This document shows, one piece after another, positions 3,339 to 64,000 of a stretch of DNA of 64,000 bases. The stretch spans positions 68,417-132,416 of the forward strand of contig CATQHX010000079.1 of NCBI GenBank assembly GCA_958296065.1, given 5' to 3'. The position numbers and the translations under genes are program-made. The DNA comes from Vicinamibacterales bacterium (GTDB lineage: Bacteria > Acidobacteriota > Vicinamibacteria > Vicinamibacterales > UBA8438). The stretch's first letter is position 1; each line of letters begins with the position of its first letter. The notes under the pieces were generated by a model, which did not search any database, was not told the origin of the DNA, and saw only the letters and a program-made list of their open reading frames with translations.

Positions 3339-3371
3339 CGCAGGGAAGCTTCTTCCAGTTCCGTTCCAGAC

Positions 3372-45157: not shown

Positions 45158-45335
45158 ACCGCCGCGGCACTTGGATGTGATGCGCCTCGGCACGCGCGTC
45201 GAGGCGGGCGAAGCGCCGTTCGTGGCGGATCGCGATGCCGCACTCTACGAGCGGTATCGCAAGTAGCGGCCAGAACTGAACGACGGCGGATGGGAGTCCG
45301 CGGGCAGGGCTCCCGCAACGGGACGGGAGGTTGAC

Positions 45336-46589: not shown

Positions 46590-46703
46590 CCGGCGGGTGA
46601 CCGGCGGCCGGGGGTTTTTGCCGTGGAACGGTGCAGACCGCCGGCGAGGGTTGGTTGAGCGGCAAGCGGGGCCGCGGGCGACGAATGACGCAGGGGGTTC
46701 AAC

Positions 46704-47684
46704 GTGCGAAACCGAATGATATACGGCGGCTCGATAGTCACCGCGGTGCTCGTGACGGCGGCCGTCACCGCCGTCATCACCGCGTCGATGACCGGCGCGG
46801 CCGGTCAGGGGCAGGAGGCGGCGGACGCGGTCCGCACCGTCGACGGCCGGCCCGACTTCAGCGGCATCTGGCAGGCGAACAACGAGGCGCACTGGGACCT
46901 GGAGGCCCACGCCGCGCGTGCGGGCATGGTGACCCAGCAGGGTGCGTATCCGTTCGACTTCGTTCAGGTCCCGGCGGCCCCGGTGCTCGCGCTGGGCGCG
47001 GCCGGCGGCGTCCCCGCCTCGCTCGGCGTCGTCGAGGGCGACGGCCGGATCCCGTACACGCCGGAGGCGCGGGCCATCAAGGACGAGAACGCGGCCAACT
47101 GGATCGACCGCGACCCCGAGCTCAAGTGCTACCTGCCGGGGATCCCGCGGGCGATGTACATGCCCTACCCGTTCCAGATCGTGCAGAGCACGAACAAGAT
47201 CCAGATGGCGTTCGCGTTCACCAGCACGGCGCGGACCATTCACCTGGACGACGTCGAGCTGCCGCCCGACTGGACCTACATGGGGCACTCGGTGGGCCGC
47301 TGGGAGGGCGACACGCTGGTGGTCGACGTCACCGAGTTCAACGGCAAGAACTGGTTCGACCGAGCCGGCAACTTCCACAGCGAGGCGCTGCGGCTGGAGG
47401 AGCGCTTCACGCCGATCTCGCCCGACGCCATCCACTACGAGGTGACGATTACGGATCCGAACACCTTCACCGAGCCCTGGACCATCTCCATGCCGCTCTA
47501 CCGCCGCCTGGAGGACAACATGCAGCTGCTGGAGTACCGCTGCATCGAGTTCGTCGAGGAGTTCCTCTACGGGCACGTGCGCAAGGAGCAGCTCGTCACG
47601 ACCTGGGAGGGGGAGACCATCATCGTGGACATCCGGCGCAAGGTGCCGCCGGGGGACGCCTTCTACGACTGGTATCGCAAGTGA
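46704..47684 (+). CDS. Secreted protein of unknown function (paralogue pair, member 2)
   Basis: N-terminal TM/signal. PDFSGIWQANNEAHWDLEAH, CYLPGIPRAMYMPYPFQIVQ, GRWEGDTLVVDVTEFNGKNWFDRAGNFHS, ends FYDWYRK*. Confidence 0.6.
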   Translation: MRNRMIYGGSIVTAVLVTAAVTAVITASMTGAAGQGQEAADAVRTVDGRPDFSGIWQANNEAHWDLEAHAARAGMVTQQGAYPFDFVQVPAAPVLALGAAGGVPASLGVVEGDGRIPYTPEARAIKDENAANWIDRDPELKCYLPGIPRAMYMPYPFQIVQSTNKIQMAFAFTSTARTIHLDDVELPPDWTYMGHSVGRWEGDTLVVDVTEFNGKNWFDRAGNFHSEALRLEERFTPISPDAIHYEVTITDPNTFTEPWTISMPLYRRLEDNMQLLEYRCIEFVEEFLYGHVRKEQLVTTWEGETIIVDIRRKVPPGDAFYDWYRK

Positions 47685-47804
47685 GCCCCGGTTGCGGCGG
47701 CGCGCCGGCCAGCGCCGGTCGACACGCGGGCGGTGCGCGGCCGGACCAGCCCGGCCGGTAGCCCGGGTTGCCGCAACGGCTGACGGGAGGGCAGACTGTC
47801 CGTC

Positions 47805-49391: not shown

Positions 49392-49533
49392 CTTCGGTAC
49401 AGGGATCAGCCAGCCCTCGCTTCCAAGTCCCGCTCCGAGAAATTCATCACCCGAGAAGCCGCACTGCGCACCGTCGCTGCCCCACGACTCGACTCCACTG
49501 CTAAGATCACGCGCGACAACTACAGGAAACTGC

Positions 49534-51801
49534 ATGCCTGACAACCACTACACTCTACGGCCGGAAGCCGGACCTGTCCGGCGCCGGTCGCTCAATCGCA
49601 GTCAGTTCGAGGCGCTGAGGAAAACTGTCGCGGCTCTGTCTGAAGCCGTGAAGGATGCGGCAGACTCGAGCCGGTCAAGCGATGTGGACCACGCGACCGA
49701 AACGGACCGCGTGAGCCGGCTTTTTTTCGTTTCTGGTCAACCAGGTAGTGGAAAGAGTAGCCTCTATGTCACCCTTCGCGCCCTTCTCGGCAAAGATCGC
49801 CGGCACGATGACATCCGCCAGGAATACTGCGAAAGGCCTCCGACCATTCCTTTTTCAGCCTTGAAGGGCAAGATTCGTTGGCTTGAGCCCCTTGACCTCG
49901 AAGTCGCCGTGGACGACGGAGAGAATCTTCTTGCGGCCGTTCTCGTTCGAATTGCCGAGGCGATTGACCATTCGTCCCCGTCTGCCTCGAAGGATTGTCG
50001 AGATGCGATGGAGCAATTGGAGGAATTAGCCAACGACATCGGAATCGCCTGGGACGGCAACCTGAAGGCTCGGGCGGGATCTCTTGATCCGGACAGCTAT
50101 TCCCAGGAAACCATGAGGGCTCAACGGACGAGGCTCCAGACCAATAGTCGTCTGCGTACCGCTCTTGACGCCCTATTGAAGAACGAGTGCTACGCCCTTG
50201 CCGGCGAAGAACTCTTCGTGCTTCCCATTGATGACTTCTACTTGAAACCCAAGGCGTCCTTGGAGCTGCTTCGGCTTCTCAGAATGATCTCTGTTCCGCG
50301 GTTGTTCTTTCTGATCATGGGAGACATCAAGACCGTGGAAGCACTCTTCTTCGAGATGGCTCTTGCCGACTGGACGGCTGTCGCGGGACCTCAGGTTTTT
50401 GCGACACTACGAGAGCGGACGAAGCAAGAGGTCCTGCCGCGGGTTAGGGAGATGAGGGCGCGGTATCTTCGCAAACTAATCCCGGCGGGCCAGCGTGCCA
50501 TCATCGACTGGACGGAATGGGATGAAGGGCTCCGGTTCAGCCCACCCCCGGCGACGTGGGGCTCTGGTCGAGCGGAGTCGTTGTGTAAGCTGTTGTCCAC
50601 AATTCGCTGGAGGAATAGGCCAGACGAACAAGAATGCAATCTTCTCGATTACCTCGTATCTCCGCTGCTCGACAAAGATGCTCTCTGCGAAACGACAGGC
50701 GACTTGGCCCTTCCGAAGTTGGACGATGGCAATCGGAACATGGTCAATAGATTCCGAGAGGCGTATTCGGGTCTTCAAGTCCTTGATGCCACGCCCAGGG
50801 AGCTTCTCGACCTGTGGATGTGCTTGCCCAAGCCCGGGACGAGTGAGGAAGTCTGCGCGAAGGCTGCGCAGACGGATTGTGGTGGAGACAGTCACTTGCG
50901 AATGGTCGTGGAGCGTACGCTCGTCGCAATCGAAGAACAGGATTTTCTGACGGAGGAAGATCAGGAAATTCTCCGGTTTGTTTTTCCGACTAGCAGCCGT
51001 GACGATTTGCAGCTTCGTTCGAATAGGTTGGGTCTGAAACAGAAGACCGGGCCGTGGCGAGGCAATTCAAACCAGGACGTTCTCGTGCGCCCGCATCGCG
51101 ATTGGAGACTCGGCATTCTTGGCCCTAAACCTCAAGGGTCCAAGTGCCGGAATCGTGAGAACAGTCATGAACCGCAAGAAACCAGAGGCCAAGATGTTCA
51201 GCATGACGAAAATGGGAAATCGCACCTCCCACCGCGAGTGGCGGCGTGGATTATTCTGTTGCACGACTTGGCGTGGAACCGGGGCTGCGATAGCGTTCTA
51301 CTAGAGAATCTAGTTCAGAGATTGCGCAAGGAAATCAGGGACCACTCCAACTCGATTGAGTCGACGAGGGAATTAGGTACAATGCAGCCTGGATGGGCGT
51401 GGTATAGGGATAAAGGTAAGGATCACTGGGTCCATTTTCCGCTTCCAGAAGTCGACACCTTTCGAGAGTTGGACCGGTTTCTGGCAATTTGGAGCTACAA
51501 GCCGGGCACGGAACGGCGTGAACCTCCCGTGGATCCCAAGGCGGCCGTCCAAAAATGGGCGATGGCTGCTTGGATAACGAAAGAGGGCTCGGAAAATCTC
51601 TACGAAGAGTACGTAAAATCGCAGGACGACAACCAGGACAAGGGCGATAGCGCCAAATGGTACGAGGAATGCGCCTCGTCGTTGGACAAGAGCGGGAATG
51701 CAGATGGTAGTGGTGGAGCGAGGAAGTTCGCGGACTTTAGGAAAAAGCTCTTCAATGGCCGTCAAGTTCTCTTGGATTGGGCGGGCGAAGGAGGAAAGTA
51801 G
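49534..51801 (+). CDS. Large P-loop NTPase (755 aa), RdrA-like by position and architecture
   Basis: Walker A FFVSGQPGSGKSS (nt 49735-49761). Walker B-like ELFVLPIDDF (aa 226-235). A long helical C-terminal region and a low-GC, charged insert around 51100-51250. The family call rests mainly on the adjacent deaminase gene. Confidence 0.65.
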   Translation: MPDNHYTLRPEAGPVRRRSLNRSQFEALRKTVAALSEAVKDAADSSRSSDVDHATETDRVSRLFFVSGQPGSGKSSLYVTLRALLGKDRRHDDIRQEYCERPPTIPFSALKGKIRWLEPLDLEVAVDDGENLLAAVLVRIAEAIDHSSPSASKDCRDAMEQLEELANDIGIAWDGNLKARAGSLDPDSYSQETMRAQRTRLQTNSRLRTALDALLKNECYALAGEELFVLPIDDFYLKPKASLELLRLLRMISVPRLFFLIMGDIKTVEALFFEMALADWTAVAGPQVFATLRERTKQEVLPRVREMRARYLRKLIPAGQRAIIDWTEWDEGLRFSPPPATWGSGRAESLCKLLSTIRWRNRPDEQECNLLDYLVSPLLDKDALCETTGDLALPKLDDGNRNMVNRFREAYSGLQVLDATPRELLDLWMCLPKPGTSEEVCAKAAQTDCGGDSHLRMVVERTLVAIEEQDFLTEEDQEILRFVFPTSSRDDLQLRSNRLGLKQKTGPWRGNSNQDVLVRPHRDWRLGILGPKPQGSKCRNRENSHEPQETRGQDVQHDENGKSHLPPRVAAWIILLHDLAWNRGCDSVLLENLVQRLRKEIRDHSNSIESTRELGTMQPGWAWYRDKGKDHWVHFPLPEVDTFRELDRFLAIWSYKPGTERREPPVDPKAAVQKWAMAAWITKEGSENLYEEYVKSQDDNQDKGDSAKWYEECASSLDKSGNADGSGGARKFADFRKKLFNGRQVLLDWAGEGGK

Positions 51802-54585
51802 GTGTCGCCCACGCGATTGGCCCGAATACCGTTCGAGCATGTGGAAGCGGAGCTGGCAGCGTTTCCCATCGCGTCGGAAGCCAGCTTCCGGTCAGGGCTT
51901 GTCTGTCTAGAACCGGTAGCCTCCCGTGTCTCGATGCATAGGAACCTGTGGCCTGCCCCGGAGGGCGGCATTCGTACTGCCCGTCAATTGAACTTGGCGC
52001 GCGTCGCGGAGCGTGACATTCTTCTTTCGGTACCATCCGTTCCTCTGGACGAGTTCGTCGCGATTCGGGATCGCGTGTGGTTCGGGAATAGTGCCGAGCG
52101 AGTCGACATGCATACGCCGATTCCACTTGTTCGCTACCTGCGGCGGCTATCGGAACAGTACCTGGATGAGTCCGGTCGGCCGGTGGACCCGCCGTCGTCG
52201 CGAAACGGGAACGAGGATGCGTCATCGCGGGCACGGCTGCGTTGGAGCTGGCTGTGTCGGGCACTCCCGGCAGACTTGCTTCGGGCCGGGCGCGGCGTCG
52301 CGCCGGCCGACGAGTCGCCTTTTTCGTTGAGCCCAAACATCGATCGTCTTCTTCGAGAAATCGGTTATGCGGAGACACACCTCCACCTCGGAGCGGCCAC
52401 GGACTTTTCGTTGCTCTGGGCAAACTTCATGCGCGCTCTGGCGGAGGAAGAAATCCCAGAGGATTCTTTGGAAAGCAGTGGCGCTTGCTTCGACGAAGGG
52501 AGGGAGTTTGCCAAGTGGATTGCGTGGGCGGCCGTTGTTCGCTTGGTCCTTGCCGAGTGGTTGTTTGACGTTGCCCGGGTCCGACAGAACGCGGGGCTGG
52601 CGGAGTTCACGACGGGTACATGGCACAGGCGGATGAAGGGCGGGACGACGAACGACCTGCTCCGTTTGGTTTCGGAGTTCGAGTGGGGCCACCCGGGCAC
52701 GCGTCCGTTGAGCTTTGCTCGAGGGCGGGCGATATATCGGTTGCTGAGGCGCCCGTTGCCGTTCGGTCGGGGCCGCGGGTCGGAGGGGCGTCGGCGGCGT
52801 ACCCGCAACAAATCGGGCCGCGAGAGAATATTCGAGAACGACCCGCTTGCGCGCGTTGTCGGCTGGCAGTGGGGCTCGGGGTCTAGTCCTGAGATGCGTT
52901 TCGTCGAAGAATCACTTAGGCATTTGGAGCGCAACGAAGGGGACAGCGACTTCGCTCGTCTTTTTTGGCAGGTTGTCCGCGTTCGCTGTCTCCTCTACCG
53001 GCACTTGGCGCAACGCCCGATGACGCCTGGCCTGCAGTGGTTCGTGCGCTTTTTCTCTCGCATCAAGCCTGTCCGCGGGCAGCTGCCGAAGGCGGTCAGG
53101 ATGCAGGCTGCGATTCGTTCGGGCGGCGGCGGATGCGGCTTGCGGTCGCTGGAAGTTCGCGTCGGTACGGAGGCTGGGCAGTCGGATTGCCTGGACATCT
53201 TGCAGAAGGTGAACGAGGCCGGGCGTGGCGCCGGGCGGCTTGAAACAGGCGCGGTATTTCATTTCTCACGGGATCGCGGCGGCGGTTGGAGGCAGGGTGT
53301 TCCGAATGCGCACGGACTGGATCACTCATATCCCGGTGTGCCAGCGGACAGTAGGCTGAGGACCAGCAGAGAGGTGGGGAACCCGAGCGGCTTGCGGTTT
53401 GCGCGTTTCTATCTTGAGAAACGTGGTCACGCCCAGGCGCTAGTCAGCGTGCTCCGCGGGTTCCCGCGTGCGCTTCGGACGCTTCGTGGCGTCGACCTGT
53501 GCACGGACGAAGCCGGAGTCCCGGTGTGGGTCATGGCTCCCTTGGTGCGATGGGTGCGGGAATCCGGCCGGACCGCCGCCGCCGTATTGCGGGATCGGGG
53601 GATCACGGACATTCCGCCGCTACGAGCCACGATCCATGCGGGAGAAGACTTCGTGCATCTTTTGTCTGGCCTCAGGCGCCTCGACGACGCGATTCGACAT
53701 CTGGGTCTCGAAGAAGGCGACCGGATCGGGCACGGAATGGCCCTCGGCCTCGACCCGACGACGTGGTTCGAGCGCGTTGGACGAATCGTCCAATCGCGAG
53801 AGGAACGGCTCCTCGATCTAGTCTGGGAGTGGGACTTCTACGCCACTCGAGGTGTGGCGGTCGGGGGCCCGGGCCGTCTCGCCTACCTGACGGGCGCTAT
53901 CACCCGGCTCGCGCGGGAGATGTTCGAAGAAACCTGCGCTCCGGAAGAACTCGTGCGTTTCGTTCGGCTGTTGCACTGCGAACGAGAACTGCGAGCGGCA
54001 GGTTTCCCGGACCGGCCGGGACGCTGCAGCCCGGCCGCCGCACGCTTCCGCGACGACGAAGACCGCCCGCGGACACTGCTGCGGGAGTACTTGGGGAGCA
54101 CGGAAGTCTGGCGGAAGGGACGCGTCCTGGAAACGATCACGCTTCGTGAGCTGCCCCACGAGTTGGATGCGCTTCGCACTGTGCAGGGCGCGCTGCGGAG
54201 GGAGGTGGGCACGCGCGGATTGACGGTCGAGGTCAATCCGTCGTCCAACCTGCTGATCGGCGACCTCGGTCGCATCGACGAGCATCCGATCTGGCGGCTG
54301 CGGCCCGTGCGATTCATCGACGACATTCCGCCTCTGTCGGTCTGTATCGGCAGCGACGATCCGTTGACCTTCGCGACCACTCTTCCCCATGAATACCAAT
54401 TGCTCTTCGACACGATCGTTCTCTCGGACGGATCACACGAGGAGGCGCTGGACTGGCTCGAGCATGCCCGGGCGGCCGGGATGCGCGCGCGCTTCACGCT
54501 TCCGCGGCGTGTGACCCGGACCCCTGAGAGGCTGCTGCCGGCGCTGCTGCGCGGTCGCCGGCCGTCGCCGGTGCAGCCGCCATGA
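51802..54585 (+). CDS. Giant adenosine-deaminase-fold protein (927 aa), RdrB-like
   Basis: GTG 51802 directly follows TAG 51799-51801, with GGAGGAAAG upstream. ADA motifs occur in canonical order: ETHLHLG (H193/H195), TIHAGEDF (H612/E615), RIGHG (H644), VNPSSN, IGSDDP (D852/D853), separated by large insertions. Confidence 0.8.
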   Translation: MSPTRLARIPFEHVEAELAAFPIASEASFRSGLVCLEPVASRVSMHRNLWPAPEGGIRTARQLNLARVAERDILLSVPSVPLDEFVAIRDRVWFGNSAERVDMHTPIPLVRYLRRLSEQYLDESGRPVDPPSSRNGNEDASSRARLRWSWLCRALPADLLRAGRGVAPADESPFSLSPNIDRLLREIGYAETHLHLGAATDFSLLWANFMRALAEEEIPEDSLESSGACFDEGREFAKWIAWAAVVRLVLAEWLFDVARVRQNAGLAEFTTGTWHRRMKGGTTNDLLRLVSEFEWGHPGTRPLSFARGRAIYRLLRRPLPFGRGRGSEGRRRRTRNKSGRERIFENDPLARVVGWQWGSGSSPEMRFVEESLRHLERNEGDSDFARLFWQVVRVRCLLYRHLAQRPMTPGLQWFVRFFSRIKPVRGQLPKAVRMQAAIRSGGGGCGLRSLEVRVGTEAGQSDCLDILQKVNEAGRGAGRLETGAVFHFSRDRGGGWRQGVPNAHGLDHSYPGVPADSRLRTSREVGNPSGLRFARFYLEKRGHAQALVSVLRGFPRALRTLRGVDLCTDEAGVPVWVMAPLVRWVRESGRTAAAVLRDRGITDIPPLRATIHAGEDFVHLLSGLRRLDDAIRHLGLEEGDRIGHGMALGLDPTTWFERVGRIVQSREERLLDLVWEWDFYATRGVAVGGPGRLAYLTGAITRLAREMFEETCAPEELVRFVRLLHCERELRAAGFPDRPGRCSPAAARFRDDEDRPRTLLREYLGSTEVWRKGRVLETITLRELPHELDALRTVQGALRREVGTRGLTVEVNPSSNLLIGDLGRIDEHPIWRLRPVRFIDDIPPLSVCIGSDDPLTFATTLPHEYQLLFDTIVLSDGSHEEALDWLEHARAAGMRARFTLPRRVTRTPERLLPALLRGRRPSPVQPP

Positions 54586-55409
54586 CGCCGAAGATTGCGG
54601 CGGGCGAGTGCGGCGCGGATGTATGGGCGGAGCAGGTCGTCGCAAGTCTGCGCGCTTGCGGGTATTTCTACGACCCAGATTTTTCGTCGAGTGTCGATAG
54701 TGCCGCTGTTCTGGTGCGGGCCGCTGGCGCTCTTGGATCGGTGCTGATTCAGCCCGGGACGGAGGGCCAGCGGCCCGTGCTGTTGACCCGTCCTTCGCAG
54801 CGCGCACCGAAATGGCGGCCGTTCGACCGCCGAGCGTCGATCGGCTGGCACAGTGATTTCTCGACGTGGTCCGATCGGCCGGTACTTAGTCTGTCGTGGA
54901 TTCGCCGCCAGGATCCTGCGGGGCCGGACGCCGGCGCTTGGCGGGTGGCTTCGGTCCGGGCCGTGCTGGCCGAGCTCGCTGGCAGCGCCGAGGGCCGGAC
55001 CCTGGTCGGCCAGTTGTTCCGAGATACCCACCCTTTCGGCTACCTGGATGCCGGTCGGCCCCGGTTCTTTCGCCTACTCAGCCGGAGGGGCCTGCGCTTC
55101 TACGGTCGCGCGCTCGCCGAAGGCGCTCGCCTTGCCTTCGACAAGGTCCCGCCTCGGACCCGCGAAACCATCGCGCTGATCGAACGGGCCGCGGATGCGG
55201 TCGGGGAGACGCTTCCGGCTTCAACCGGCTCGCTGCTGGTTGTTCACAACTGGTTCAGTTTGCATGACCGGACCGAGCAGACGGTGGCCGGAGCCGGAAC
55301 CGGAGCGAGACGGCAGGCGTGGCTCTGTTTCGTCAAGAGCCTCCATCGGCCGCTCTCCGGATCCGATTGCTCATTCGTTACGGGCGCCGCGCAAGCAGAA
55401 ACACGTTGA
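54582..55409 (+). CDS. TauD/TfdA-like Fe(II)/2-oxoglutarate dioxygenase (275 aa), third gene of the RADAR-like operon
   Basis: ATG overlaps the upstream stop (ATGA). HxD motif IGWHSDFS (H90/D92). Distal LLVVHNWFSLHDRTE (H228, R230). Size and motif spacing fit the clavaminate-synthase-like fold. Confidence 0.65.
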   Translation: MTPKIAAGECGADVWAEQVVASLRACGYFYDPDFSSSVDSAAVLVRAAGALGSVLIQPGTEGQRPVLLTRPSQRAPKWRPFDRRASIGWHSDFSTWSDRPVLSLSWIRRQDPAGPDAGAWRVASVRAVLAELAGSAEGRTLVGQLFRDTHPFGYLDAGRPRFFRLLSRRGLRFYGRALAEGARLAFDKVPPRTRETIALIERAADAVGETLPASTGSLLVVHNWFSLHDRTEQTVAGAGTGARRQAWLCFVKSLHRPLSGSDCSFVTGAAQAETR

Positions 55410-56106
55410 ACGCGTTTCGAAAGGGCTCGCCTCGCCACGAATCCAGCAGTTCGATACTCTCGAACCCGACTCTGGAGGCCAGCGCAGCCACCTCGTTGAC
55501 GTCGGCCGCGCCGAGCCGATGTTCTTCGCAGAAGAGTTCGTTCCTGCTCTTGCAGCCGTACACGTAGTGCGCCTGCAATGTGTCCGGACGGTCCGGTGCC
55601 GGCGCGAAGCGGTAGAAAAAAACGATATCGTCTTCTTTGCCGTCAGGCCCCGGCTCGCGGTCTTCTTCAAGCACGCCGGTTGCATTGGGCGCGTGAGCGA
55701 TCTGTAAGATCAGTTGTCCTCCCGGACGTAGCGCACGCAACAGACGGGCCAGTACATCGTGGGCCTCCGCAAACGAGCTGACGTAGTTGAAGGACCAGCT
55801 CAGCGCAACGATGCCGTCATAGGCGTTTCTCTCCCGAAGCTGCTGCATCTGTTCGACACTAACGCGTTCCTTGCCGACTCGCCGCGCCGCGATGGCGACC
55901 ATTTCCGGCGCGGCGTCGATGCCGACCGCGTCGAAGCCGGCGGCCACCGCCTTCCGCAGGAACACACCCGTGCCGCAGCCGATGTCGAGGATACGGGCGG
56001 GTTCGCCGAGCCGTTCCAATACGAAAGCATGGTCGTCCTGGTAGTGGTGCGGCGGCGTGTGCCAGTCGAACCGATCGGCGAAACGCCCGAACAATGCGTA
56101 GGTCAT
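55378..56106 (-). CDS. Class I SAM-dependent methyltransferase (242 aa)
   Basis: Motif I ILDIGCGTGVF, motif II-like AVGIDAAPEMV, post-I acidic residues, LRPGGQLIL. Small-molecule type (no DPPY/NPPY). The 3' end overlaps the convergent dioxygenase gene by 32 nt. Confidence 0.8.
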   Translation of the reverse strand: MTYALFGRFADRFDWHTPPHHYQDDHAFVLERLGEPARILDIGCGTGVFLRKAVAAGFDAVGIDAAPEMVAIAARRVGKERVSVEQMQQLRERNAYDGIVALSWSFNYVSSFAEAHDVLARLLRALRPGGQLILQIAHAPNATGVLEEDREPGPDGKEDDIVFFYRFAPAPDRPDTLQAHYVYGCKSRNELFCEEHRLGAADVNEVAALASRVGFESIELLDSWRGEPFRNAFNVFLLARRP

Positions 56107-56109
56107 CGG

Positions 56110-59100
56110 TCAGTTCAGCACTCGGAGTTGAGTCATGCTGTGAACCGCCCGCTCGAACACGGCACGCAACAGGGCCGGATCCTGAATCGGTTCCCGCAGT
56201 GGGGCCTGCGGAACCGTACGGGTCAGGGGCTCCAGGCAGTGCAGGATTCGCTGCTTCATCCGCTCGCTTCGCCGACTGGGCGGCCTTGCCTGCATGATAG
56301 CCTTGGCCAGCGCCCCGACGGACCCGGCGCGAACCCACTCGAACCAGGAACGCTGGCCGAGCCGGATCGCGCGGCTGTGCACTTGCAGTCCGGTCCCCCG
56401 GCACCGCGGACAGTCGACCGAGCGCGTCGAGCTGCTCAGTCGTTTGCGCCATTCCGGGTGCTTGCTGCGTTCTGATTCTCCAAGGACGGCGCGCACGAGA
56501 CCGTCCCAGCGCAACCATGAACGAACGTCTTCAGGTTTGGCGCGCGGATTCTTCAGGAAGCTGCCGTGGCCCGGACGACACCAGAACCCGTGCATCAGGA
56601 TGGATCGGTCTTCAGGATCGAGCCGCGAGAACGATCTGCCCCGCGCCCACAGACCCTCGGCGATCATCCGCTTGAAAAACGGCAACCACGTGTTGCGGCG
56701 GACGCCTCGGAGCACGCCAAGTGCTTCGGCGCGGAGGAATCCGTTGTCGGACGGATCGGCCGCGGGACGGGCGATCAGGAGGTCCTCCTCCACCGTCTGA
56801 ACCGAGCCGGCGCCCGCACAGCAAGGGCATCGTCCGGCGGCGTGGAACCGCGACAGGCTCGACGATTCCGGCGACAGCGGCGCGACAGCCGGCGACTCGA
56901 ACTCTATATTGAGGTGACGGATTTGGATCGTCTTCAGGACACGTTGTCGACCGTCTACGAGCTCGACGTACCCTCCACCGATCGCGAGCGCATCGCGCAA
57001 GCTCCGCATGCGTTCGCCGGAAGTTCCGCGATGCGACCCGAAGCGCTTTCCCGTGGCGCGGACCGCCGCTAGGTTCGATGGGACCGACATGTCGAGAGGG
57101 CTATCCAATCCCATGTGACGGAGGCGGTCCCGCACCGTCCGCAACACGGAAGCGGGGAGCCGAGCGCCCCATACTCGCAACTCCTCCAGCAGCGGGTGGA
57201 CTTGAAGGTGCGCGTCAGGCTTCGCGGCCCAGATCTCGCCCAGACGTGCGAGTTCGCCGACGCGATCGTCCTGCCGATCCAGTAGCAAGCGCGCGATCTC
57301 GATATCGAGCCCGCCGATCTCGTATGGACGGGCCACCGCTGCCGCCTCGTCGATCACAACCGCCAGCGCGTCGAAGTCGACGGGATCCAGTGCGTCGGCC
57401 GGTACATCCTCACCAATCAGACGCTTGAGCCACTGTCTGGCGCTGCGGAAGGAGACGACCGGCTCGGCGTGCCGTGCCTTGGACGCAGGGCTGGCGACAG
57501 TGCCAGCGACGGGTCCCGAGTGCGCCTGCTTTCCTTCCAGCGCGCGCCCCGTCGCAGTGTCGCAAGCGACGATCTCAGCCGGAGGACCCTCCCCTACGAC
57601 GCGGCCGCCAGCCGGTCCCCCACCGGGGCCGAAGTCGATAATCCAATCGGAAGTACGAATCAGATCGGTATTGTGCTCGACCAGGAGCACCGTGTTGGCG
57701 CCACCGGCGACCACGCGGTCGAGGACCCGCAACAACCGCGCCACGTCCTGGGGATGGAGGCCAGCCGACGGCTCGTCCAGCACGAGGAGCAGTCCTTCCG
57801 TACGCCGATTGGCCAGAGTCTGGGCGATCCGAAGGCGCTGGTGCTCGCCTCCGCTGATTCGGTCGAGGCGGCGCCCGAGCGTCAGGTAGCCGAGGTCCAG
57901 TGTGACCAACTGCTCCAGCAGCGACCGCCAGCCGGCTTCATTGGTGATCGAATGGGCCAGCAGTTCGTCTATGGGCAGTTCCAGAATGTCCGCCACGCTG
58001 TGGCCGTCGAGACGGACGCTGAGAGCCTCTTCTCCGAATCGGCGGCCGCCGCAGTGCGGACACACCACCGAGTCCCCGGAATCTTCGATCTCACCCAACC
58101 CGAGGCAAGTCTGACAGCGGCCCCCGCCCGCGTTCCAGCCGAAATCGGTGGCCTTGAGATCCAGGCGGCGAGCTTCCGGGCGGCGAGCGAAGATCCTCCG
58201 CAGGTCGTTGGCCATCCCAAGCAGTGTCCCCACGGCGCTTCGTCGCTGGGAGCTCGGCGTCCGAGGTTCGAGCGCCAGGACGGACGAGATGCAGGACGCA
58301 CCTGTGACGCGGTCCCAGGATCCGCCGTCCCATACAAAGCCTTCAGCGTCGACCCGGCCCGGCAGCTCCTGCGCCAGGGCCGGGACGAGAATGCCACGGA
58401 CGAAACTCGACTTTCCCGACCCGGACACGCCCGTGACGGATACGAGTCTCCCGATCGGGATGTCGCACGTGACGTTCGACAGCGTGTGGATGTGCGCGCC
58501 GGAGACCGTGATCCGTATGTCGTTCGAGTCTACGGTGAGATGGCGGCGGTGCTCCGCGCTCTGAGATATCTTCTCAAGCATTTGCTGCGGCGGTCCCTGG
58601 CCGACGATCCGGCCGCCGTCGCCGCCGGCGCCAGGGCCAATTTCCAAAACCTGATCGACGAACCGAGCCAGTGAAATCCGGTGCTCGTTTATGACCAGCG
58701 TGTGCCGGCGCTTCAAGCTTTCCAGAGCACCGGAGAGCCGCGCCACATCCTCTTCGTGGAGACCCCGCGCGGGCTCGTCCAGCATCAGCGCCAAGCCTTC
58801 CCCGCGCGTGCGGAGAAGGGCTGCCAGCCGGGATCGTCGGCTCTCTCCCTCGCTCAGGGTGAGCATTCCGCGTTCGGCCGAAATGTGCCCGAGACCCGTC
58901 GCGACGAAAGCGGATGCCGCTATATGCAGGGCGCTCGCAAGCGGTCGGGACGGACCGGCCAGGGCCTGCTCCATGGCGCCACCTGGCTTCGACAGTTCCC
59001 GAAGTTCGTCGAACGAGAGCCCGAGGAGTTCATGCATTCCCCAGTGCCCCAGGCGTAGGGCCTGAGCTTCCCTCGACCAGCGTGTGCCGCAGCATTCCTT

Positions 59101-60369
59101 GCACGGGCCATCCGTCACCAGAGTCGCGAGTCGCGAGGCGGAAGCCCTTCCGTCGGCCCGACGTAGAATCTCCGGCACGAAGCCCCGGAAAGGCCGTGGC
59201 GAGCTCACCTTCCGCCCGGTTCGCCGATCGATGTCCGCTACGATCTCGCTGCCCGAACCGAAGAGAACAAGATTTTTCGCATCCGAACTGAGGCGCCCCC
59301 ATGGTATGTCCGGAGAAAAACCGCGAAGTCCACGCAACCCCTCGATCGTCTCGTGCTGGATATTAACGTAGCGATAGTTCTTCTCGGTCCAGAGGGTGAA
59401 CGCTCCCTCGTGCATGCTCCTTTCCGGATGAGCCGCAAGCGCCTCTACGCGCACCGATCTGGCCGTGCCGAGTCCTTCGCAAGCCCTGCAGGCGCCGCTA
59501 TCAGGATTCGAGAAGGAGTTGAATGAAAGGAGCGCTTCGCTGGGGCAGAAGAATGGCGCCAGGACTTCGGGATGAACCCGATGCGCGGCACTGTCGAGCT
59601 GTAAGCCACGCTCGGTCCGAAGTTGTCTCGGCAGGGGCGCGCCGCCCTCGAACTCGACGATGACGTCGCCGCCGACGGCGAAGGCGCGCTCGAGCATGGC
59701 CATCAAGCTCGCGCATCTACCCGAAACTTGTGTTCGTCCGATTTCCGCCTCGATCAAGTGGCGAGTATTCTCGGCGAGAGGGCGGAACTTGGCGAGATCG
59801 ATCTCCCGGCCTCGGCGAGCCGGGGAATCCGTTTCGCTAGAGAGCATCGCAACGTTGAGCCCGTGCTGTCGTAAACGGGCCACGGCGCTTGTGCCATCGG
59901 TGCGCCGCCACCGTTCAGCGACGACCCATACGATCAGCGAGCCGGTGTAGTGTCGCTCTATCCATGCGGCGTAGCTGTGCGCCGATGCTAGTGGAACGAC
60001 ACTTGCGGCCTCTTCCGCCCATGGTGCCGAGTATCGGCTGAAGTAGCGCCGCAGCAGCGCCAGAAGGCCCGTGGATGTGCCGACGGTCGTCCGCCGTGAC
60101 GCGCGAAAAGCGGCTTGAGCGAAATGTATGCCCGGCGGCAGGGGGCCCAGGAAGGCTGCAACGTCCCTGTCGTCGAGGTGCGGCTGCTGGACACGCAGGA
60201 ATCGCCGCATGCGCGAGTTGATCTCGGTCGCCAGCGTGTCGGCGAGCAACGAACTCTTGCCCGAGCCGGATACCCCGACCAACATAGTGGCCTTCCGGAG
60301 CGGCAAAACCACGTCGACCGACTTCAGATTGTTCGTCCGCGCGCCGACAATCTCGATTCCTTCACTCAT
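56110..60369 (-). CDS. UvrA-like double-ABC ATPase with a ~470-aa C-terminal extension (1,419 aa)
   Basis: MSEGIEIVGARTNNLKSVDV start. Walker A GVSGSGKSS twice (aa 32-40, 647-655). Signatures LSEGESRR and ISGGEHQR. Walker B LMLDEPARGLH and LVLDEPSAGLH. Zn modules GACRACEGLG, CKECCGTR, CQTC...CPHCGG. VEHNTDLIRTSDWIIDFGPGGG. The extension carries CPCCAGAG and CPRCRGTG. Confidence 0.85.
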   Translation of the reverse strand: MSEGIEIVGARTNNLKSVDVVLPLRKATMLVGVSGSGKSSLLADTLATEINSRMRRFLRVQQPHLDDRDVAAFLGPLPPGIHFAQAAFRASRRTTVGTSTGLLALLRRYFSRYSAPWAEEAASVVPLASAHSYAAWIERHYTGSLIVWVVAERWRRTDGTSAVARLRQHGLNVAMLSSETDSPARRGREIDLAKFRPLAENTRHLIEAEIGRTQVSGRCASLMAMLERAFAVGGDVIVEFEGGAPLPRQLRTERGLQLDSAAHRVHPEVLAPFFCPSEALLSFNSFSNPDSGACRACEGLGTARSVRVEALAAHPERSMHEGAFTLWTEKNYRYVNIQHETIEGLRGLRGFSPDIPWGRLSSDAKNLVLFGSGSEIVADIDRRTGRKVSSPRPFRGFVPEILRRADGRASASRLATLVTDGPCKECCGTRWSREAQALRLGHWGMHELLGLSFDELRELSKPGGAMEQALAGPSRPLASALHIAASAFVATGLGHISAERGMLTLSEGESRRSRLAALLRTRGEGLALMLDEPARGLHEEDVARLSGALESLKRRHTLVINEHRISLARFVDQVLEIGPGAGGDGGRIVGQGPPQQMLEKISQSAEHRRHLTVDSNDIRITVSGAHIHTLSNVTCDIPIGRLVSVTGVSGSGKSSFVRGILVPALAQELPGRVDAEGFVWDGGSWDRVTGASCISSVLALEPRTPSSQRRSAVGTLLGMANDLRRIFARRPEARRLDLKATDFGWNAGGGRCQTCLGLGEIEDSGDSVVCPHCGGRRFGEEALSVRLDGHSVADILELPIDELLAHSITNEAGWRSLLEQLVTLDLGYLTLGRRLDRISGGEHQRLRIAQTLANRRTEGLLLVLDEPSAGLHPQDVARLLRVLDRVVAGGANTVLLVEHNTDLIRTSDWIIDFGPGGGPAGGRVVGEGPPAEIVACDTATGRALEGKQAHSGPVAGTVASPASKARHAEPVVSFRSARQWLKRLIGEDVPADALDPVDFDALAVVIDEAAAVARPYEIGGLDIEIARLLLDRQDDRVGELARLGEIWAAKPDAHLQVHPLLEELRVWGARLPASVLRTVRDRLRHMGLDSPLDMSVPSNLAAVRATGKRFGSHRGTSGERMRSLRDALAIGGGYVELVDGRQRVLKTIQIRHLNIEFESPAVAPLSPESSSLSRFHAAGRCPCCAGAGSVQTVEEDLLIARPAADPSDNGFLRAEALGVLRGVRRNTWLPFFKRMIAEGLWARGRSFSRLDPEDRSILMHGFWCRPGHGSFLKNPRAKPEDVRSWLRWDGLVRAVLGESERSKHPEWRKRLSSSTRSVDCPRCRGTGLQVHSRAIRLGQRSWFEWVRAGSVGALAKAIMQARPPSRRSERMKQRILHCLEPLTRTVPQAPLREPIQDPALLRAVFERAVHSMTQLRVLN

Positions 60370-61249
60370 AGAGGCTTCCGCGTTCTCTGTGAGCGTGGAG
60401 AACGGCGACGCGTCTCGAATCGAAAACCGTCGGAAAGTCACGGAAGACAACCGAGCAAGGGCCTCTGGAATGCAAAGTCCTGCAGTTGGAAAGCAGAAGC
60501 AAGTCACCGCGTTCCAGCGTAAACGACGTCGCGATGGATGTCGCGGCATCCTCCACGCCGGCGATATCTTCCTCGACCGCATGAACCGCACCACCCGATC
60601 GTCGTGCGGCCGCTCTGATCGTGTCCGGGTGATAGCGAATGGTGCCGGCGTCGACCATTCTTCCGGACCATTGCACCGCCGAACGATCGTTCAGCATGGC
60701 GACAGTATCCTGTACAAGGAAACGTCGCGTGCGTTCGTTGTACTCTCGGTTGACGAAGTCCAGCAGATTCCGGAGGCGCGCGATGCTGGTGACTCCATAG
60801 CGCGGACTCCCTGGGTCCGGCTCCAGACACTGTATCGCAGTAATCGCCGGAGGATGTGGCTCGGTGTTTAGATCCGTATGGAACTCCCCAGCCCGTGTCG
60901 TATGCGACAGATCCGTCGTCCATGGCGACATCTTGAAATGCTTGATCACCTTGCCGTTACGGTAGGTTCTCAGCGCTTCCCCTACCGTCAACGTGGCCAC
61001 GAGCAATGCTGCGCCGTCCTGGACCGAGGGAAACCCCCGAAGGACGGCGTAGTCGTTGTCTCGAAAAACTCGACGAACCTCATCCTGAAAGTGCCGCCAC
61101 GACTCGGTGTGAAACAAGAGGAGGTCGTCGATTCGATCCGAGACAACCATTTCCTCAAGACGGCATGCTGCGTCCGGGGCCGCGCACGTCTTTGCAACGG
61201 CAGCAGCCACCGGGCCAGGCGTCACGAGCTGCGCCACACAGTCCTTCAT
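60362..61249 (-). CDS. TauD/TfdA-like Fe(II)/2-oxoglutarate dioxygenase (295 aa), second copy
   Basis: HxD motif AGEFHTDLN (H124/D126). Distal GDLLLLSNCRTLHSRG. Its ATG overlaps the upstream methyltransferase stop by 4 nt, and its 3' end overlaps the UvrA-like start by 8 nt. Confidence 0.7.
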   Translation of the reverse strand: MKDCVAQLVTPGPVAAAVAKTCAAPDAACRLEEMVVSDRIDDLLLFHTESWRHFQDEVRRVFRDNDYAVLRGFPSVQDGAALLVATLTVGEALRTYRNGKVIKHFKMSPWTTDLSHTTRAGEFHTDLNTEPHPPAITAIQCLEPDPGSPRYGVTSIARLRNLLDFVNREYNERTRRFLVQDTVAMLNDRSAVQWSGRMVDAGTIRYHPDTIRAAARRSGGAVHAVEEDIAGVEDAATSIATSFTLERGDLLLLSNCRTLHSRGPCSVVFRDFPTVFDSRRVAVLHAHRERGSLYE

Positions 61250-61950
61250 GACGGCTTCATGAAGCGAAACACCAGCTTGCGCCGGTACTGGTGGTCCAAG
61301 AGGTCGTGGACAGAAGGGTATTTGAAGAGCGCGTCATCAGGGTCATAGACGATCCAACCGTCACGCCTCAAGGGCCGGAGCGCGCCGCGGAGTCCCGCGC
61401 CGGTTCCGGCACGAAGGATGTCGAATGGCGCCCGGTCGAAGACCGTCTGTCCTGACTCTCGCAGCTTGGCGCTCCAGGCTTCCCAGACGGGATTCTCCGT
61501 GTGGCACCCTGCCACGATGAACGCTCTACCCGTGCCGCGAAGGACACGAGCGATGTTTGCGAACAGGCTGGGAAGGTCCTCAAGCAGATGCAAGACTTCG
61601 TGGCATGTCACGAGATCGACGCTACCCGTCGGCACTTCCGCCCAACGTTCAGGGGGCAGGAGCGTCACCGTGGTGGCAAGCGCTCGCAGGCGGAAAAGGG
61701 CACGTTCGCGGCAGCGGCCGACCGGCTCGATACCGGTCAATCGCTCGGGGCGAAAAGCGTAGGCAAGCTTTGCCAGCAGGCCGCCGTGGTGACATCCCAC
61801 GTCGAGAACGCCAGGTATGGGGACACCGCCGGAGTCTCGCTGGATATGGCCAAGCAGACTCTGCCAGAAAACCTCGTTGGCCTGTTCGAGGAACGGATCG
61901 TCCTCGGGCAGTGGTACCTGAAGCATGGGCGAGAACAGGACATCCGGCAT
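61246..61950 (-). CDS. Class I SAM-dependent methyltransferase (234 aa)
   Basis: Internal ATG 61950 of ORF 61246-62394. Motif I VLDVGCHHGGL, GIEPV, VDLVTCHEVLHLLEDL, LRGTGRAFI. The start shares one nt with the upstream stop (TGATG). Confidence 0.75.
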   Translation of the reverse strand: MPDVLFSPMLQVPLPEDDPFLEQANEVFWQSLLGHIQRDSGGVPIPGVLDVGCHHGGLLAKLAYAFRPERLTGIEPVGRCRERALFRLRALATTVTLLPPERWAEVPTGSVDLVTCHEVLHLLEDLPSLFANIARVLRGTGRAFIVAGCHTENPVWEAWSAKLRESGQTVFDRAPFDILRAGTGAGLRGALRPLRRDGWIVYDPDDALFKYPSVHDLLDHQYRRKLVFRFMKPS

Positions 61951-62435
61951 CAGGGGCAGCGCTGAGGCGAGCAACCGCGCGCCTGAGTCTCGCCACCGCA
62001 GGGGTCGATGCCGAAGTGCCGGATGAAGAGCTCCCTGCTCTGTTCGAACGCCGCCGTGAGGTCCGCCCGGTCGGCCGGACCACGCATGCCGAAGTAGGGA
62101 AAGTGATGGAGGTACTCTCCGTACAGCTCGCGGCAATCCTTCTCGTACGCCCTCGTGTCCAGGATGTGGGCATGCCAGAAGTCGTCGATCGGCCCGGTCG
62201 GGCAGATCTTCCGGTCTCGGTACACGACGTTGAGAGCGAGAAACCGACGATACAGATCCTCGACCTCGTCCTGGTACTCGGGCGACCATCCTTTTTCTTC
62301 GCCAAGCTTTCGCTTGAGCATGCTGAAATCCAGCCGCGCCACGCGGTTGAGGGACGCCGCTACCTGAGCGTCGTTCTCCAGGAGGTTCTGACATTCATCC
62401 CAGTCGAGGGGTTGAGCGGCACTCGCGTTACTCAC
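61950..62435 (-). CDS. Small GRDP/DUF1399-like protein (161 aa), first gene of the UvrA-like operon
   Basis: PIDDFWHAHILDTRAYEKDCRELYGEYLHHFPY matches the 'D.(W)H.H.L.T..Y...C' core of glycine-rich-domain-protein-like (DUF1399) domains. Cys-rich tail CGGETQARGCSPQRCP. Confidence 0.55.
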   Translation of the reverse strand: MSNASAAQPLDWDECQNLLENDAQVAASLNRVARLDFSMLKRKLGEEKGWSPEYQDEVEDLYRRFLALNVVYRDRKICPTGPIDDFWHAHILDTRAYEKDCRELYGEYLHHFPYFGMRGPADRADLTAAFEQSRELFIRHFGIDPCGGETQARGCSPQRCP

Positions 62436-63107
62436 AGTTCATCCTCCGGTTCTGCAGAATCTCAAGAGTCGAAGATCATGGACGTCTGCCTCGCGTGCCG
62501 TCAGGTCTGGCGAAGCCCCATCCAGAACGCTGGGCGAATCTTGGTACACGGTGAAGCACGGCACCCGTGCTCCCGAAGCCGCCTGCGGCAGAGCGTTGTG
62601 AGCTCCCGGGCGGGCCTCCAAGCCCGAAGGCGCCAAAATCGTCGCGAACGCGCGGCCGCCACCCGCCCTTCGCGGACGAGGGGCGGCGAGAGCCCGCCTC
62701 CCTCGCCACGCGGGAGGTCGACGAGCGATCCTGGCTCTCCGCGGCGGAAAGACGAAGGCTCTGCGCGACCCTCGGCGACGACTGCATGCCTAGGTAGAAC
62801 ATGGACTTGTAAGCGTACTACGGCCTTGCGCCCAGGCACCAAACGCGCCAGCACTTCGGCGCTGTGGACTCGCTCGAACCACGGCGTCGCGACGCGGGCG
62901 GAAGGGACATCACGAGCATCCGCTCTCGGGACGTGGACTAGAATTCCGGCCGGAGGTCGTTGCGGGCGCGACGGGGGCTCCGCTGCGCGCTGGAACTGTC
63001 GGAGAGCTGGTGACCTCCGCGCCGGCGAGCCCGTTCGGAGTCGCTGCGCACCCGGAACTCCGGCGAAGGAGCGGGCCACGGGCTCAGCGAGCTTAACCTG
63101 ACGCAAG

Positions 63108-64000
63108 ATGGATCCGAGATTCTTCGAGCAACCGATCCTGAACTCCCCGTACGAGTACCCGTCTCGCCACTGGGAGCTCGACCCGAGCGGCCAGCCGACG
63201 AACCGGATCCTTCCCGAGCGCCGCAAGGTCGCGTTCATCACGCCGATCCCGAAGCCGAAGAAGCAGACGGGCATCCAGCAGGAGAAGATCCTCTTCGACG
63301 CGGCCGCGCAGGCGCTCGGGACCGAGGCGCAGCAGTACGACCTGTCCGCTTTCATCGGCGGCGTCCGCCAGCGCGTGGATCGCTGGCGCGAGCTGCCGGA
63401 TCCGAACGCCTGGGGCGTGACGCCGGAGACTGCGCGGCTCCTGACGCACTGGCGCAGCCATCGGTTCGGCGACATTCGGCCGTTCTTCTGCCAGGTCGAG
63501 GCGGTGGAGACCGCGATCTGGCTGACCGAGGTGGCGCCGACCCTCGGCAAGGAGGGCCGCCGGTTTCTCGATCAGATCGACGCCGCCAGCGAAGGGGCCA
63601 ATCCAGGCCTCGCGCGGCTGGCGCTGAAGCTCGCCACCGGCGCCGGGAAGACCACCGTGATGGCGATGATCATCGCCTGGCAGACCATCAACGCGGTGCG
63701 CCGGCCGGGCAGCCGGCGGTTCACGCGCGGCTTTCTGGTGGTGACCCCGGGCGTGACGATCCGCGACCGGCTGCGGGTGCTCCAGCCGAACGATCCGGAC
63801 AGCTACTACGCGAGCCGCGAGCTGGTGCCGAACGACATGCTCCGCGACCTGGAACGGGCGAAGATCGTCGTCACCAACTACCACGCGTTCCTGCGGCGGG
63901 AGACGCTGCCGCTGTCGAAGGGCGGCCGCGCCCTGCTGCAGGGGTCGGGCCCGGAACTGCGGACGAAGGAGACCGAGGGTCAGATGCTGCAACGCGTCAT
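63108..64000 (+). CDS. Type III restriction Res-like / DEAD-box helicase-family restriction enzyme subunit (N-terminal part, runs off the window)
   Basis: MDPRFFEQPILNSPYEYPSRHWELD is a characteristic N-terminus of this family. Helicase motif I KLATGAGKTTVMA (nt 63633-63653). VVTPGVTIRDRL. The frame is open to the window end; antisense ORF 63093-63992 is a shadow. Confidence 0.8.
   Translation, partial: MDPRFFEQPILNSPYEYPSRHWELDPSGQPTNRILPERRKVAFITPIPKPKKQTGIQQEKILFDAAAQALGTEAQQYDLSAFIGGVRQRVDRWRELPDPNAWGVTPETARLLTHWRSHRFGDIRPFFCQVEAVETAIWLTEVAPTLGKEGRRFLDQIDAASEGANPGLARLALKLATGAGKTTVMAMIIAWQTINAVRRPGSRRFTRGFLVVTPGVTIRDRLRVLQPNDPDSYYASRELVPNDMLRDLERAKIVVTNYHAFLRRETLPLSKGGRALLQGSGPELRTKETEGQMLQRV

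Follow-up and report, generated by a model that had tools for sequence, protein, structure and literature searches.

Two anciently paralogous dioxygenases in a conserved UvrA-like module joined to a divergent RADAR pair in a Vicinamibacterales bacterium

Introduction

In the genome of a Vicinamibacterales bacterium (Acidobacteriota; GenBank assembly GCA_958296065.1, contig CATQHX010000079.1), two gene arms transcribed towards each other each carry a 2-oxoglutarate (2OG) dioxygenase of the same unusual type, and their 3' ends share 32 base pairs (bp) of DNA. This arrangement raises the question, already posed in the initial annotation, of whether the two arms form one functional unit, result from a duplication and recombination, or are coupled in their expression through the overlap. 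The stretch of DNA analyzed, hereafter the window, comprises 64,000 nucleotides, and all coordinates are positions within it. The two dioxygenases are designated TauD1 and TauD2, the methyltransferases MT1, MT2 and MT3 and the UvrA-like ATPase UvrAL, and related loci bear L-numbers.

TauD1 and TauD2 are ancient paralogs that constitute two separately conserved orthologous groups across phyla. Both are components of a six-gene module (GRDP-like protein, MT2, TauD2, UvrAL, MT1 and TauD1) which is conserved across phyla and located in defence islands, and to which one clade of RADAR-type RdrA-RdrB pairs (RdrAB) is stably fused. Taken as a whole, the reading favoured in this article, which places ancient paralogs in a conserved module, joins this module to a divergent RADAR and assigns to it a role against phages or mobile elements, is considered reasonably probable.

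RADAR was reportedly described by Gao and co-workers in 2020. It is triggered by phage, acts by (d)ATP deamination or RNA editing, leads to abortive infection and is treated as a self-contained two-protein system; the only accessory genes known to us encode small membrane proteins (RdrC/Csx27 and RdrD/SLATT). The system consists of the AAA+ ATPase RdrA and the adenosine deaminase RdrB, and structures are available (PMC9994260).

Two Dioxygenases of a Private TauD Branch

Open reading frames (ORFs) for both dioxygenases were found where the initial annotation had placed them, TauD1 at 54582-55409 on the plus strand (275 amino acids, aa) and TauD2 at 60362-61249 on the minus strand (295 aa), and the similarity in size and motif layout that had been noticed was borne out, the motifs being invariant within each family. 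Both are 2OG dioxygenases of the TauD/clavaminate synthase (CAS)-like type, TauD1 being a divergent one: with the Pfam TauD model PF02668 (cut-off 27) TauD2 scores 56.8 bits and TauD1 26.8 bits, marginally under the cut-off. The pairwise alignment that had been proposed revealed specific similarity rather than two unrelated subfamilies, with 24% identity across 142 aa in BLASTP (E 6e-6) and a match of the two ortholog profiles over 239 columns, close to their full length (hhalign, 96.7% probability, E 4e-10). TauD1 was assigned to the TauD family because of this profile tie to TauD2.

Invariant positions among 18 TauD1 sequences are W89-H90-x-D92-F93-x-T95, D111-P112, L227-H228-D229-R230 and R243-R244, and among 15 TauD2 sequences F123-H124-T125-D126, D145-P146-G147, H260-x-R262 and R279. 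The 2-His-1-carboxylate triad and the 2OG-binding arginine are present in both proteins (H90, D92, H228 and R243/244 in TauD1; H124, D126, H260 and R262/R279 in TauD2). A search of 1.84 billion representative proteins with the TauD1 profile (threshold E<=1e-3) gave only 88 matches, counted as representative clusters, which denotes a small family. Eleven longer, low-scoring matches were compared with the window proteins: three belong to the TauD2 family (P0341, P0343 and P0345, 39-46% identical to TauD2), seven proteins of 270-305 aa make up a third group, nearer to TauD2 than to TauD1, and the last (P0323) is a divergent TauD1 relative. No ordinary TauD-family enzyme was significant in this search. 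Since the TauD1 profile finds TauD2-type proteins and no ordinary TauD enzymes, the two dioxygenases are mutual nearest relatives in a private branch of the TauD family; judged by sequence, their likeness exceeds both chance and generic family membership.

The duplication that gave rise to the pair must be ancient because of the low identity and the separate ortholog series in several phyla, so that the earlier suggestion of a duplication and recombination holds for an ancient event and fails for a recent one. A recent duplication and recombination of one dioxygenase operon, which would leave the overlap as a recombination scar, could account for the common family, the similar size and the shared motif layout, but it is highly improbable given that the proteins are only 24% identical and that separate orthologs of each (33-93% identity) occur in several phyla. 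Moreover, no other gene is doubled between the arms, around which the repeat search covered positions 55200-55700, and MT1 and MT2 constitute distinct ortholog groups without any cross-match in the tblastn scans, in which the two were not compared directly.

The nearest solved structures of both dioxygenases are clavaminate synthases (CAS1 and CAS3; CAS1 in the case of TauD2) and asparagine oxygenase (AsnO), with weak E values of 4e-4 to 8e-3. TauD1 and TauD2 share with this clavaminate-synthase-like branch of the TauD/TfdA enzymes the HxD...H...R iron/2-oxoglutarate pattern, but they are very distant from CAS and AsnO, and the members of their private sub-branch sit in UvrA-like modules or in radical S-adenosylmethionine (SAM) clusters. 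PADLOC has no model for either dioxygenase.

The nearest TauD2 relatives outside the module (L072 and the contig of P0326) are located together with two radical-SAM genes and an upstream ORF of 74-75 aa, an arrangement that resembles clusters for ribosomally synthesized and post-translationally modified peptides (RiPPs). These RiPP-like clusters hint at peptides as possible substrates of the dioxygenase branch.

TauD1 as a Component of the UvrA-Like Module

One genome per species was scanned with the TauD1 alignment, which yielded 17 loci from Acidobacteriota, Thermodesulfobacteriota, Myxococcota, Methylococcaceae, Alteromonadaceae and Cloacimonadota. Wherever the flank is long enough, TauD1 adjoins MT1, UvrAL, TauD2 and MT2 (tblastn with the window proteins; 17 genomes). 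About 20 metagenome loci that were anchored independently on RdrB also join TauD1 to the module, and the lists of TauD1 and TauD2 homologs have at least 25 contig sizes in common.

This linkage holds with or without RdrAB and across at least five gene orders. Most loci (the window, L001-4, L006 and L015) carry RdrA, RdrB and TauD1 in one direction, converging on MT1, UvrAL, TauD2 and MT2, which are read in the other. RdrAB is divergent from TauD1 in L005, L057 and L059, where TauD1 again converges on MT1. Among Myxococcota (L010-12), RdrAB lies in reverse orientation between the module, which ends there with UvrAL, MT1 and MT3, and TauD1, which is read in the same direction as these. The Gammaproteobacteria (L013, L014 and L016) show a co-directional series of MT2, TauD2, UvrAL, MT1, in part MT3, and TauD1, without RdrAB. 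Finally, unrelated genes replace RdrAB in L007-9; in L007 they are a pair consisting of an AAA_21 ATPase and a TIR-WD40-Ras-DUF4365 protein, which stands upstream of TauD1 where RdrAB is otherwise located. MT3, absent from the window, is a CmcI-like methyltransferase (PF04989; L013 9130-9990, L014 9100-9963, L010-L012 about 3100-4960) that occupies the interval between MT1 and TauD1 in Methylococcaceae and that between MT1 and RdrB in myxobacteria; none was found in L016.

A mobilizable plasmid of Azospirillum ramasamyi (NZ_CP029836.1, L073) carries at the position of TauD1 a PhyH dioxygenase (15858-16709; 106.7 bits) that has no similarity to TauD1 and ends an otherwise orthologous co-directional module. 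This protein is a non-orthologous replacement of TauD1, which indicates a need of the module for a second 2OG oxygenase there. Because TauD1 is co-directional with the module in Gammaproteobacteria and is replaced by the PhyH protein on the Azospirillum plasmid, it belongs to the UvrA-like module, and its former description as the end of a RADAR-like operon was misleading. Distant variant clusters contain a GRDP-like small protein, a methyltransferase, a TauD protein, a second methyltransferase and a UvrA-like protein, the latter 31-32% identical to that of the window.

A RADAR Clade Joined to the Module

The plus-strand arm opens with an RdrA-like AAA ATPase (49534-51801, 755 aa), followed by an RdrB-like adenosine deaminase (51802-54585, 927 aa) whose stop codon overlaps the start of TauD1 (ATGA). 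RdrB matched the PADLOC RdrB model (E 3.4e-37), the NCBIfam RdrB model (E 5.6e-49) and Pfam A_deaminase, and its profile matched the RdrB structure 8fnw in the PDB (E 5.8e-42); the motifs H193-x-H195, H612-A-G-E615-D616 and S851-D-D-P854 are invariant. These matches mark it as a clear but divergent predicted member of the RdrB family. The pair thus resembles RADAR in its ATPase-then-deaminase order and in the HxH, HAGE(D) and SDDP motifs kept by RdrB, whereas it differs from RADAR in that its scores lie far under the equivalog cut-offs (167 of 800 bits for RdrB, 24 of 600 for RdrA), no solved RdrA matches, and this clade is always joined to the six-gene UvrA-like module. The RdrA-like protein reached 28.8 bits with Pfam AAA_16 (cut-off 32.6) and E 1e-5 with the NCBIfam RdrA model, with no match in PADLOC and no sequence match in the PDB; its size and its position directly upstream of RdrB fit RADAR, and the family is weakly recognisable by sequence. 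Relatives (26-56% identity, tblastn) stand upstream of RdrB in other loci, and the protein shares 26-34% identity with the ATPases that precede stand-alone RdrB relatives.

Metagenome contigs were also scanned with the RdrB alignment, which gave 48 loci. Wherever the flank is usable, an RdrB of at least 47% identity precedes TauD1, the module or both (in L020 the module without TauD1). At about 34-43% identity the relatives belong to RdrAB pairs that stand alone, and for at least nine of these the downstream flank extends over 3.7-10 kb; L049 is the exception. Identities co-vary across loci, with Spearman rho values of 0.86 for TauD1 and TauD2, 0.83 for TauD1 and UvrAL, 0.76 for RdrB and MT1 and 0.66 for RdrB and UvrAL. 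The RdrB clade rule and the co-varying identities therefore indicate that the eight genes were inherited together in that clade. The initial proposal of one functional unit is accordingly upheld for TauD1 and the minus-strand operon in general, and for the RADAR arm in the clade of at least 47% identity, where homologous islands keep both arms together; it is not universal, as RdrAB of 34-46% identity stands alone and the module also occurs without RdrAB.

RADAR and the UvrA-like module could instead be two independent systems lying side by side, in which case the shared dioxygenase type and the overlap would be meaningless for RADAR. Modules without RdrAB and RdrAB pairs without the module (more than nine loci) both occur, and SIR2-TPR or ATPase plus TIR-WD40 genes are found at or beside the same junction, which is typical island behaviour. 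Nevertheless, the RdrB clade is linked in every locus with enough flank across at least three relative orientations, RdrAB lies between module genes in Myxococcota, RdrB co-varies with the module (rho 0.66-0.76), and TauD1 is start/stop-coupled to RdrB in the window, all of which makes independence somewhat doubtful.

The Convergent Junction

TauD1 and MT1 overlap tail to tail across 55378-55409, as reported initially: the stop codon of TauD1 (TGA) is located at 55407-55409 and that of MT1 (TAA, on the reverse complement) at 55378-55380, and the 32 bp between these limits code on both strands. The same 32-bp overlap occurs in L001 and L002. The other uninterrupted convergent loci have either overlaps (21, 4, 16 and 36 bp, four loci) or gaps (22, 25 and 35 bp, three loci). 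Throughout this set the junction is tight (-35 to +36 bp), but the overlap varies in length. The DNA of the overlap is highly conserved across four loci because of dual coding, and the extended tail of TauD1 is confined to the closer relatives.

Terminators and promoters were scanned for across 49-63 kb, and their counts equalled the shuffled expectation, with nothing at the junction. Folding of the junction gave non-significant z-scores on the two strands (-1.7 and -0.8), and a small hairpin at 55399-55419 is not kept in L001, L002 or L021. Five RdrAB-bearing loci have insertions of 1.2-5 kb exactly between TauD1 and MT1. The inserted DNA encodes a SIR2-TPR protein in three of them (L006 10846-12495, L024 6461-8107 and L055 13880-15523), a TPR-only remnant of such a protein in L026 (10878-11510), and an AAA_21 ATPase together with a TIR-WD40-Ras-DUF4365 protein in L030 (13804-18843).

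Convergent read-through across the junction is likely and may be of consequence, but it is not a required feature because junction insertions and co-directional versions exist. A stronger form of this idea sees in the overlap a switch, selected for antisense action or transcriptional interference, through which the two arms are expressed in a mutually exclusive manner, as would suit a junction that is always tight, shows no terminator-like site and has highly conserved overlap DNA. However, the length of the overlap varies, five loci have the junction interrupted, the gammaproteobacterial and plasmid versions are co-directional, dual coding accounts for the conservation, and the local hairpin lacks both significance and conservation, so that a switch of this kind seems quite improbable; with regard to antisense coupling through the overlap, which the initial annotation had raised, the comparison of loci argues against an essential role. 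In the favoured reading, the 32-bp overlap would be a packing consequence of the inversion of TauD1, dual-coding and without a terminator, and not a conserved regulatory device.

Proteins of the Minus-Strand Operon

The minus-strand operon comprises, in order of transcription, the genes for the GRDP-like protein, MT2, TauD2, UvrAL and MT1; at the first three junctions the start of one gene overlaps the stop of the preceding one, a 3-bp gap separates UvrAL from MT1, and the five genes constitute a translationally coupled operon.

UvrAL (56110-60369, 1419 aa) is a UvrA-like double ABC ATPase whose true start is the ATG at 60369, overlapping the stop of TauD2 by 8 bp. It matches TIGR00630 with 541 bits, under the cut-off of 729.8, over the UvrA model from end to end; its residues 1-945 match the UvrA structure of M. 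tuberculosis in the PDB (E 1e-113), and it also matches Ecm16 (7sh1, E 1e-91). It contains the Walker A sequence GVSGSGKSS twice, signature and Walker B motifs, CxxC zinc modules and the Pfam UvrA_DNA-bind insertion domain. The low score and the length of 1419 aa, compared with about 940 aa in canonical UvrA, set it apart from the UvrA equivalogs. Few identities were observed in the UvrB-binding region, for which the Pfam scan gave no UvrB-interaction domain. The additional C-terminal 485 aa have no Pfam domain and are confined to the UvrAL family among 20 matches; no nuclease domain turned up. The AlphaFold2 model of the C-terminal region (predicted local distance difference test score, pLDDT, 78.7) has UvrA structures as its top Foldseek matches (3uwx, E 8e-11, TM 0.38), and on this model the region is read as a probable degenerate partial repeat of UvrA accessory domains.

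MT1 (55378-56106, 242 aa), a class I SAM-dependent methyltransferase that closes the operon, matches Pfam Methyltransf_23/25/11/12 and has orthologs of 41-78% identity in all module loci. The ORF at 61246-62394, initially taken for a single 382-aa methyltransferase gene, turned out to comprise two genes. MT2 proper is a class I SAM methyltransferase of 234 aa (61246-61950) whose ATG shares bases with the stop codon of the preceding gene (TGATG), and its orthologs are called as genes of 228-250 aa in L014, L018 and L073. The upstream gene, which had been missed, lies in another frame of the long ORF and opens the operon; it encodes the GRDP-like or 'UCP032817-like' small protein (61950-62435, 161 aa) from a GTG start preceded by GGAGG.

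The GRDP-like protein is 74% identical to that encoded at L019:2545-3021, source-annotated as PF27765 'UCP032817-like', and its Azospirillum ortholog matches the Pfam GRDP-like family PF07173 with 23.9 bits; the window protein itself gave no match in the local Pfam copy, NCBIfam or the PDB. A homolog is located directly upstream of MT2 in nearly all loci. The mean identity of 73% is the highest among the module proteins aligned, and W87-H88-x-H90, H110-H111, C155 and C160 are invariant, a WHxH...HH...C...C pattern that suggests metal binding. A literature search on PF27765/UCP032817 gave no description of the module.

Some related loci show signs of decay. The RdrB gene of L002 (7119-9905) contains two in-frame stops, UvrAL of L006 (13260-17538) gives split or overlapping matches, MT1 of L018 (15169-15663) is truncated near an IS1595 transposase, and L020 lacks TauD1.

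Defence Islands and Comparison With Known Systems

Modules that lack RdrAB adjoin defence genes: a type I restriction-modification system in L014, SIR2-STAND-TPR and HipA genes in L008, QatABC and SIR2 in L019, and AbiEii with toxin-antitoxin genes in L018. The module of L073 has a 5-methylcytosine methyltransferase, Vsr and DUF2357 as neighbours, and that of L007 the AAA_21 ATPase and the TIR-WD40-Ras-DUF4365 protein.

No system model in PADLOC describes the module, and such matches as cassette proteins other than RdrB gave were at domain level only. The module was likewise not described in the literature searched, which covered RADAR with UvrA, UvrA-like defence, UvrA with TauD and methyltransferase, and RdrC/RdrD, and no dioxygenase, methyltransferase or UvrA-like partner was found in the RADAR literature. 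With Dnd/Ssp, Dpd, BREX and MADS the module has in common its location in a defence island and the combination of several modification-type enzymes with a large ATPase associated with DNA, but it differs from these systems in having no conserved nuclease or helicase and in its generic class I SAM methyltransferases. MADS is defined by MAD6, MAD7 and MAD8 as mandatory components and by a DNA methyltransferase with a recognition motif. Membership in MADS was rejected: the PADLOC matches of MT1, MT2 and UvrAL to mad2, mad3 and mad8 are domain-level only, the mandatory MAD6-8 are absent, and no equivalents of MAD6 or MAD7 were found among the nine proteins scanned.

UvrA-like proteins provide self-resistance in intercalator gene clusters, and CmcJ and CmcI are a hydroxylase and O-methyltransferase pair responsible for the 7-methoxylation of cephamycin. 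UvrAL shares two ABC domains, CxxC zinc modules and a DNA-binding insertion domain with UvrA, UvrA2, Ecm16 and DrrC, but it is distinguished from UvrA and class II UvrA by its length, with a UvrA-like C-terminal addition and a poorly conserved UvrB-binding region, and by its genetic setting in defence islands, where it shares an operon with methyltransferases and 2OG oxygenases. The module likewise resembles CmcJ/CmcI in combining a 2OG oxygenase with a SAM methyltransferase, the modules of Gammaproteobacteria and Myxococcota having an extra methyltransferase of the CmcI family; unlike that pair it has no beta-lactam or other biosynthetic context, and the analogy is one of chemistry only.

In line with these similarities, the module might be a tailoring pathway for a DNA-binding or DNA-damaging metabolite or a nucleotide analogue, UvrAL conferring self-resistance like Ecm16 and DrrC and RADAR being a mere neighbour. 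Two or three methyltransferases and two 2OG oxygenases do look like tailoring enzymes, clavaminate synthase and asparagine oxygenase are the solved structures nearest to the dioxygenases, some versions include a CmcI-like O-methyltransferase, related TauD proteins occur in radical-SAM, RiPP-like clusters, and UvrAL matches Ecm16. Such a pathway is nonetheless unlikely: none of the loci shows a scaffold-forming enzyme (non-ribosomal peptide synthetase, polyketide synthase or cyclase), an exporter or a protease conserved alongside the module, the neighbours are defence and not biosynthetic genes, UvrAL covers the UvrA model end to end and carries an extra UvrA-like region whereas Ecm16 has 812 aa, and the tight linkage to RdrAB recurs across rearrangements. 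The module was also considered as a class II UvrA self-resistance cluster and set aside, since conservation is limited to the GRDP-like gene, two or three methyltransferases and two oxygenases, without scaffold-forming biosynthetic enzymes, and the flanks vary and carry defence genes.

Limits and Surroundings of the Cassette

The conserved block extends from about 49534 to about 62435 and contains eight genes. The flanking ORFs tested (orf47805, orf62501 and orf63093) have no counterpart in related loci. The window is rich in guanine plus cytosine (GC; about 0.66-0.72), the cassette having about 0.54-0.68 compared with 0.69-0.73 in the flanks; the lowest values of the island (0.54-0.59) are those of the RdrA-like gene (49400-51800), and the remaining cassette ranges from 0.59 to 0.68. 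There are no transfer RNA genes in the window, a megablast search of 49000-63000 against plasmids gave no match, and neither did a tblastn search of TauD2 against phages. The regions at 42992-49544 and 62476-63992 contain long overlapping ORFs on both strands that have no Pfam match except a weak RnfD-like one on 47805-49391.

Proposed Function and Significance

The catalytic residues are intact in TauD1, TauD2, RdrB and UvrAL. In the lineage of the window, TauD1 would have turned tail-to-tail with respect to the operon, now ending a divergent RADAR pair, and the eight-gene cassette (49534-62435) would have been inherited and transferred as a block. The two dioxygenases and the two, elsewhere three, methyltransferases probably carry out successive hydroxylation and methylation of a common cellular substrate, in an order that would follow the hydroxylase-then-O-methyltransferase logic of CmcJ/CmcI; the substrate could be nucleotide- or DNA-associated, or a protein or peptide. 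UvrAL, with its ATPase motifs and zinc modules intact, probably scans DNA. The interchangeable neighbours (RdrAB, SIR2-TPR, or ATPase plus TIR-WD40) probably supply or add an abortive-infection effector, and in the case of RdrB the effector action would be (d)ATP deamination.

Several observations weigh against this reading. A defence role for the module is a conclusion that we infer from the neighbourhood alone. The module occurs without RdrAB (L007-9, L013, L014, L016, L018, L019 and L073) and RdrAB without the module, so that their coupling could reflect persistent co-transfer rather than biochemical interaction, and TauD1 is missing in L018, L019 and L020, being dispensable in some lineages. 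Membership of the RdrA-like protein in RdrA is weak by sequence, and the AlphaFold2 model of TauD1 (18-sequence alignment) has a mean pLDDT of 43 and is unusable. The methyltransferases are generic class I SAM enzymes for which DNA-methyltransferase families were not significant in Pfam and NCBIfam scans, the sole match of DNA-methyltransferase type being a marginal one to a PADLOC type II methyltransferase (E 0.0099), and the nearest solved relatives of the dioxygenases work on small molecules or amino acids; DNA modification is a weak reading for these two reasons.

The most fitting description of the locus is that of a new and larger cassette associated with RADAR, at the core of which lies an undescribed module of UvrA-like, oxygenase and methyltransferase proteins whose function we infer. 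Tentatively, and as a possibility short of an even chance, the six-gene module may be an undescribed immune system that couples oxidative and methylating chemistry to UvrA-type DNA surveillance, and in one clade it may form with RADAR a single eight-gene system in which the module feeds, gates or complements RdrB. Neither a UvrA-like DNA scanner nor hydroxylation and methylation chemistry is, to our knowledge, part of any well-understood anti-phage mechanism, and none with these features was found in the literature searched. A whole RdrAB clade is permanently joined to an enzyme module that is absent from PADLOC and from that literature. Cultured sources of the module are Azospirillum ramasamyi (plasmid NZ_CP029836.1), Methylovulum psychrotolerans Sph1, Corallococcus aberystwythensis AB050A and Chondromyces apiculatus DSM 436. 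If functional, the module would bring to defence a class of chemistry that is new there, and it could be a partner of RADAR that acts upstream of it or in parallel.

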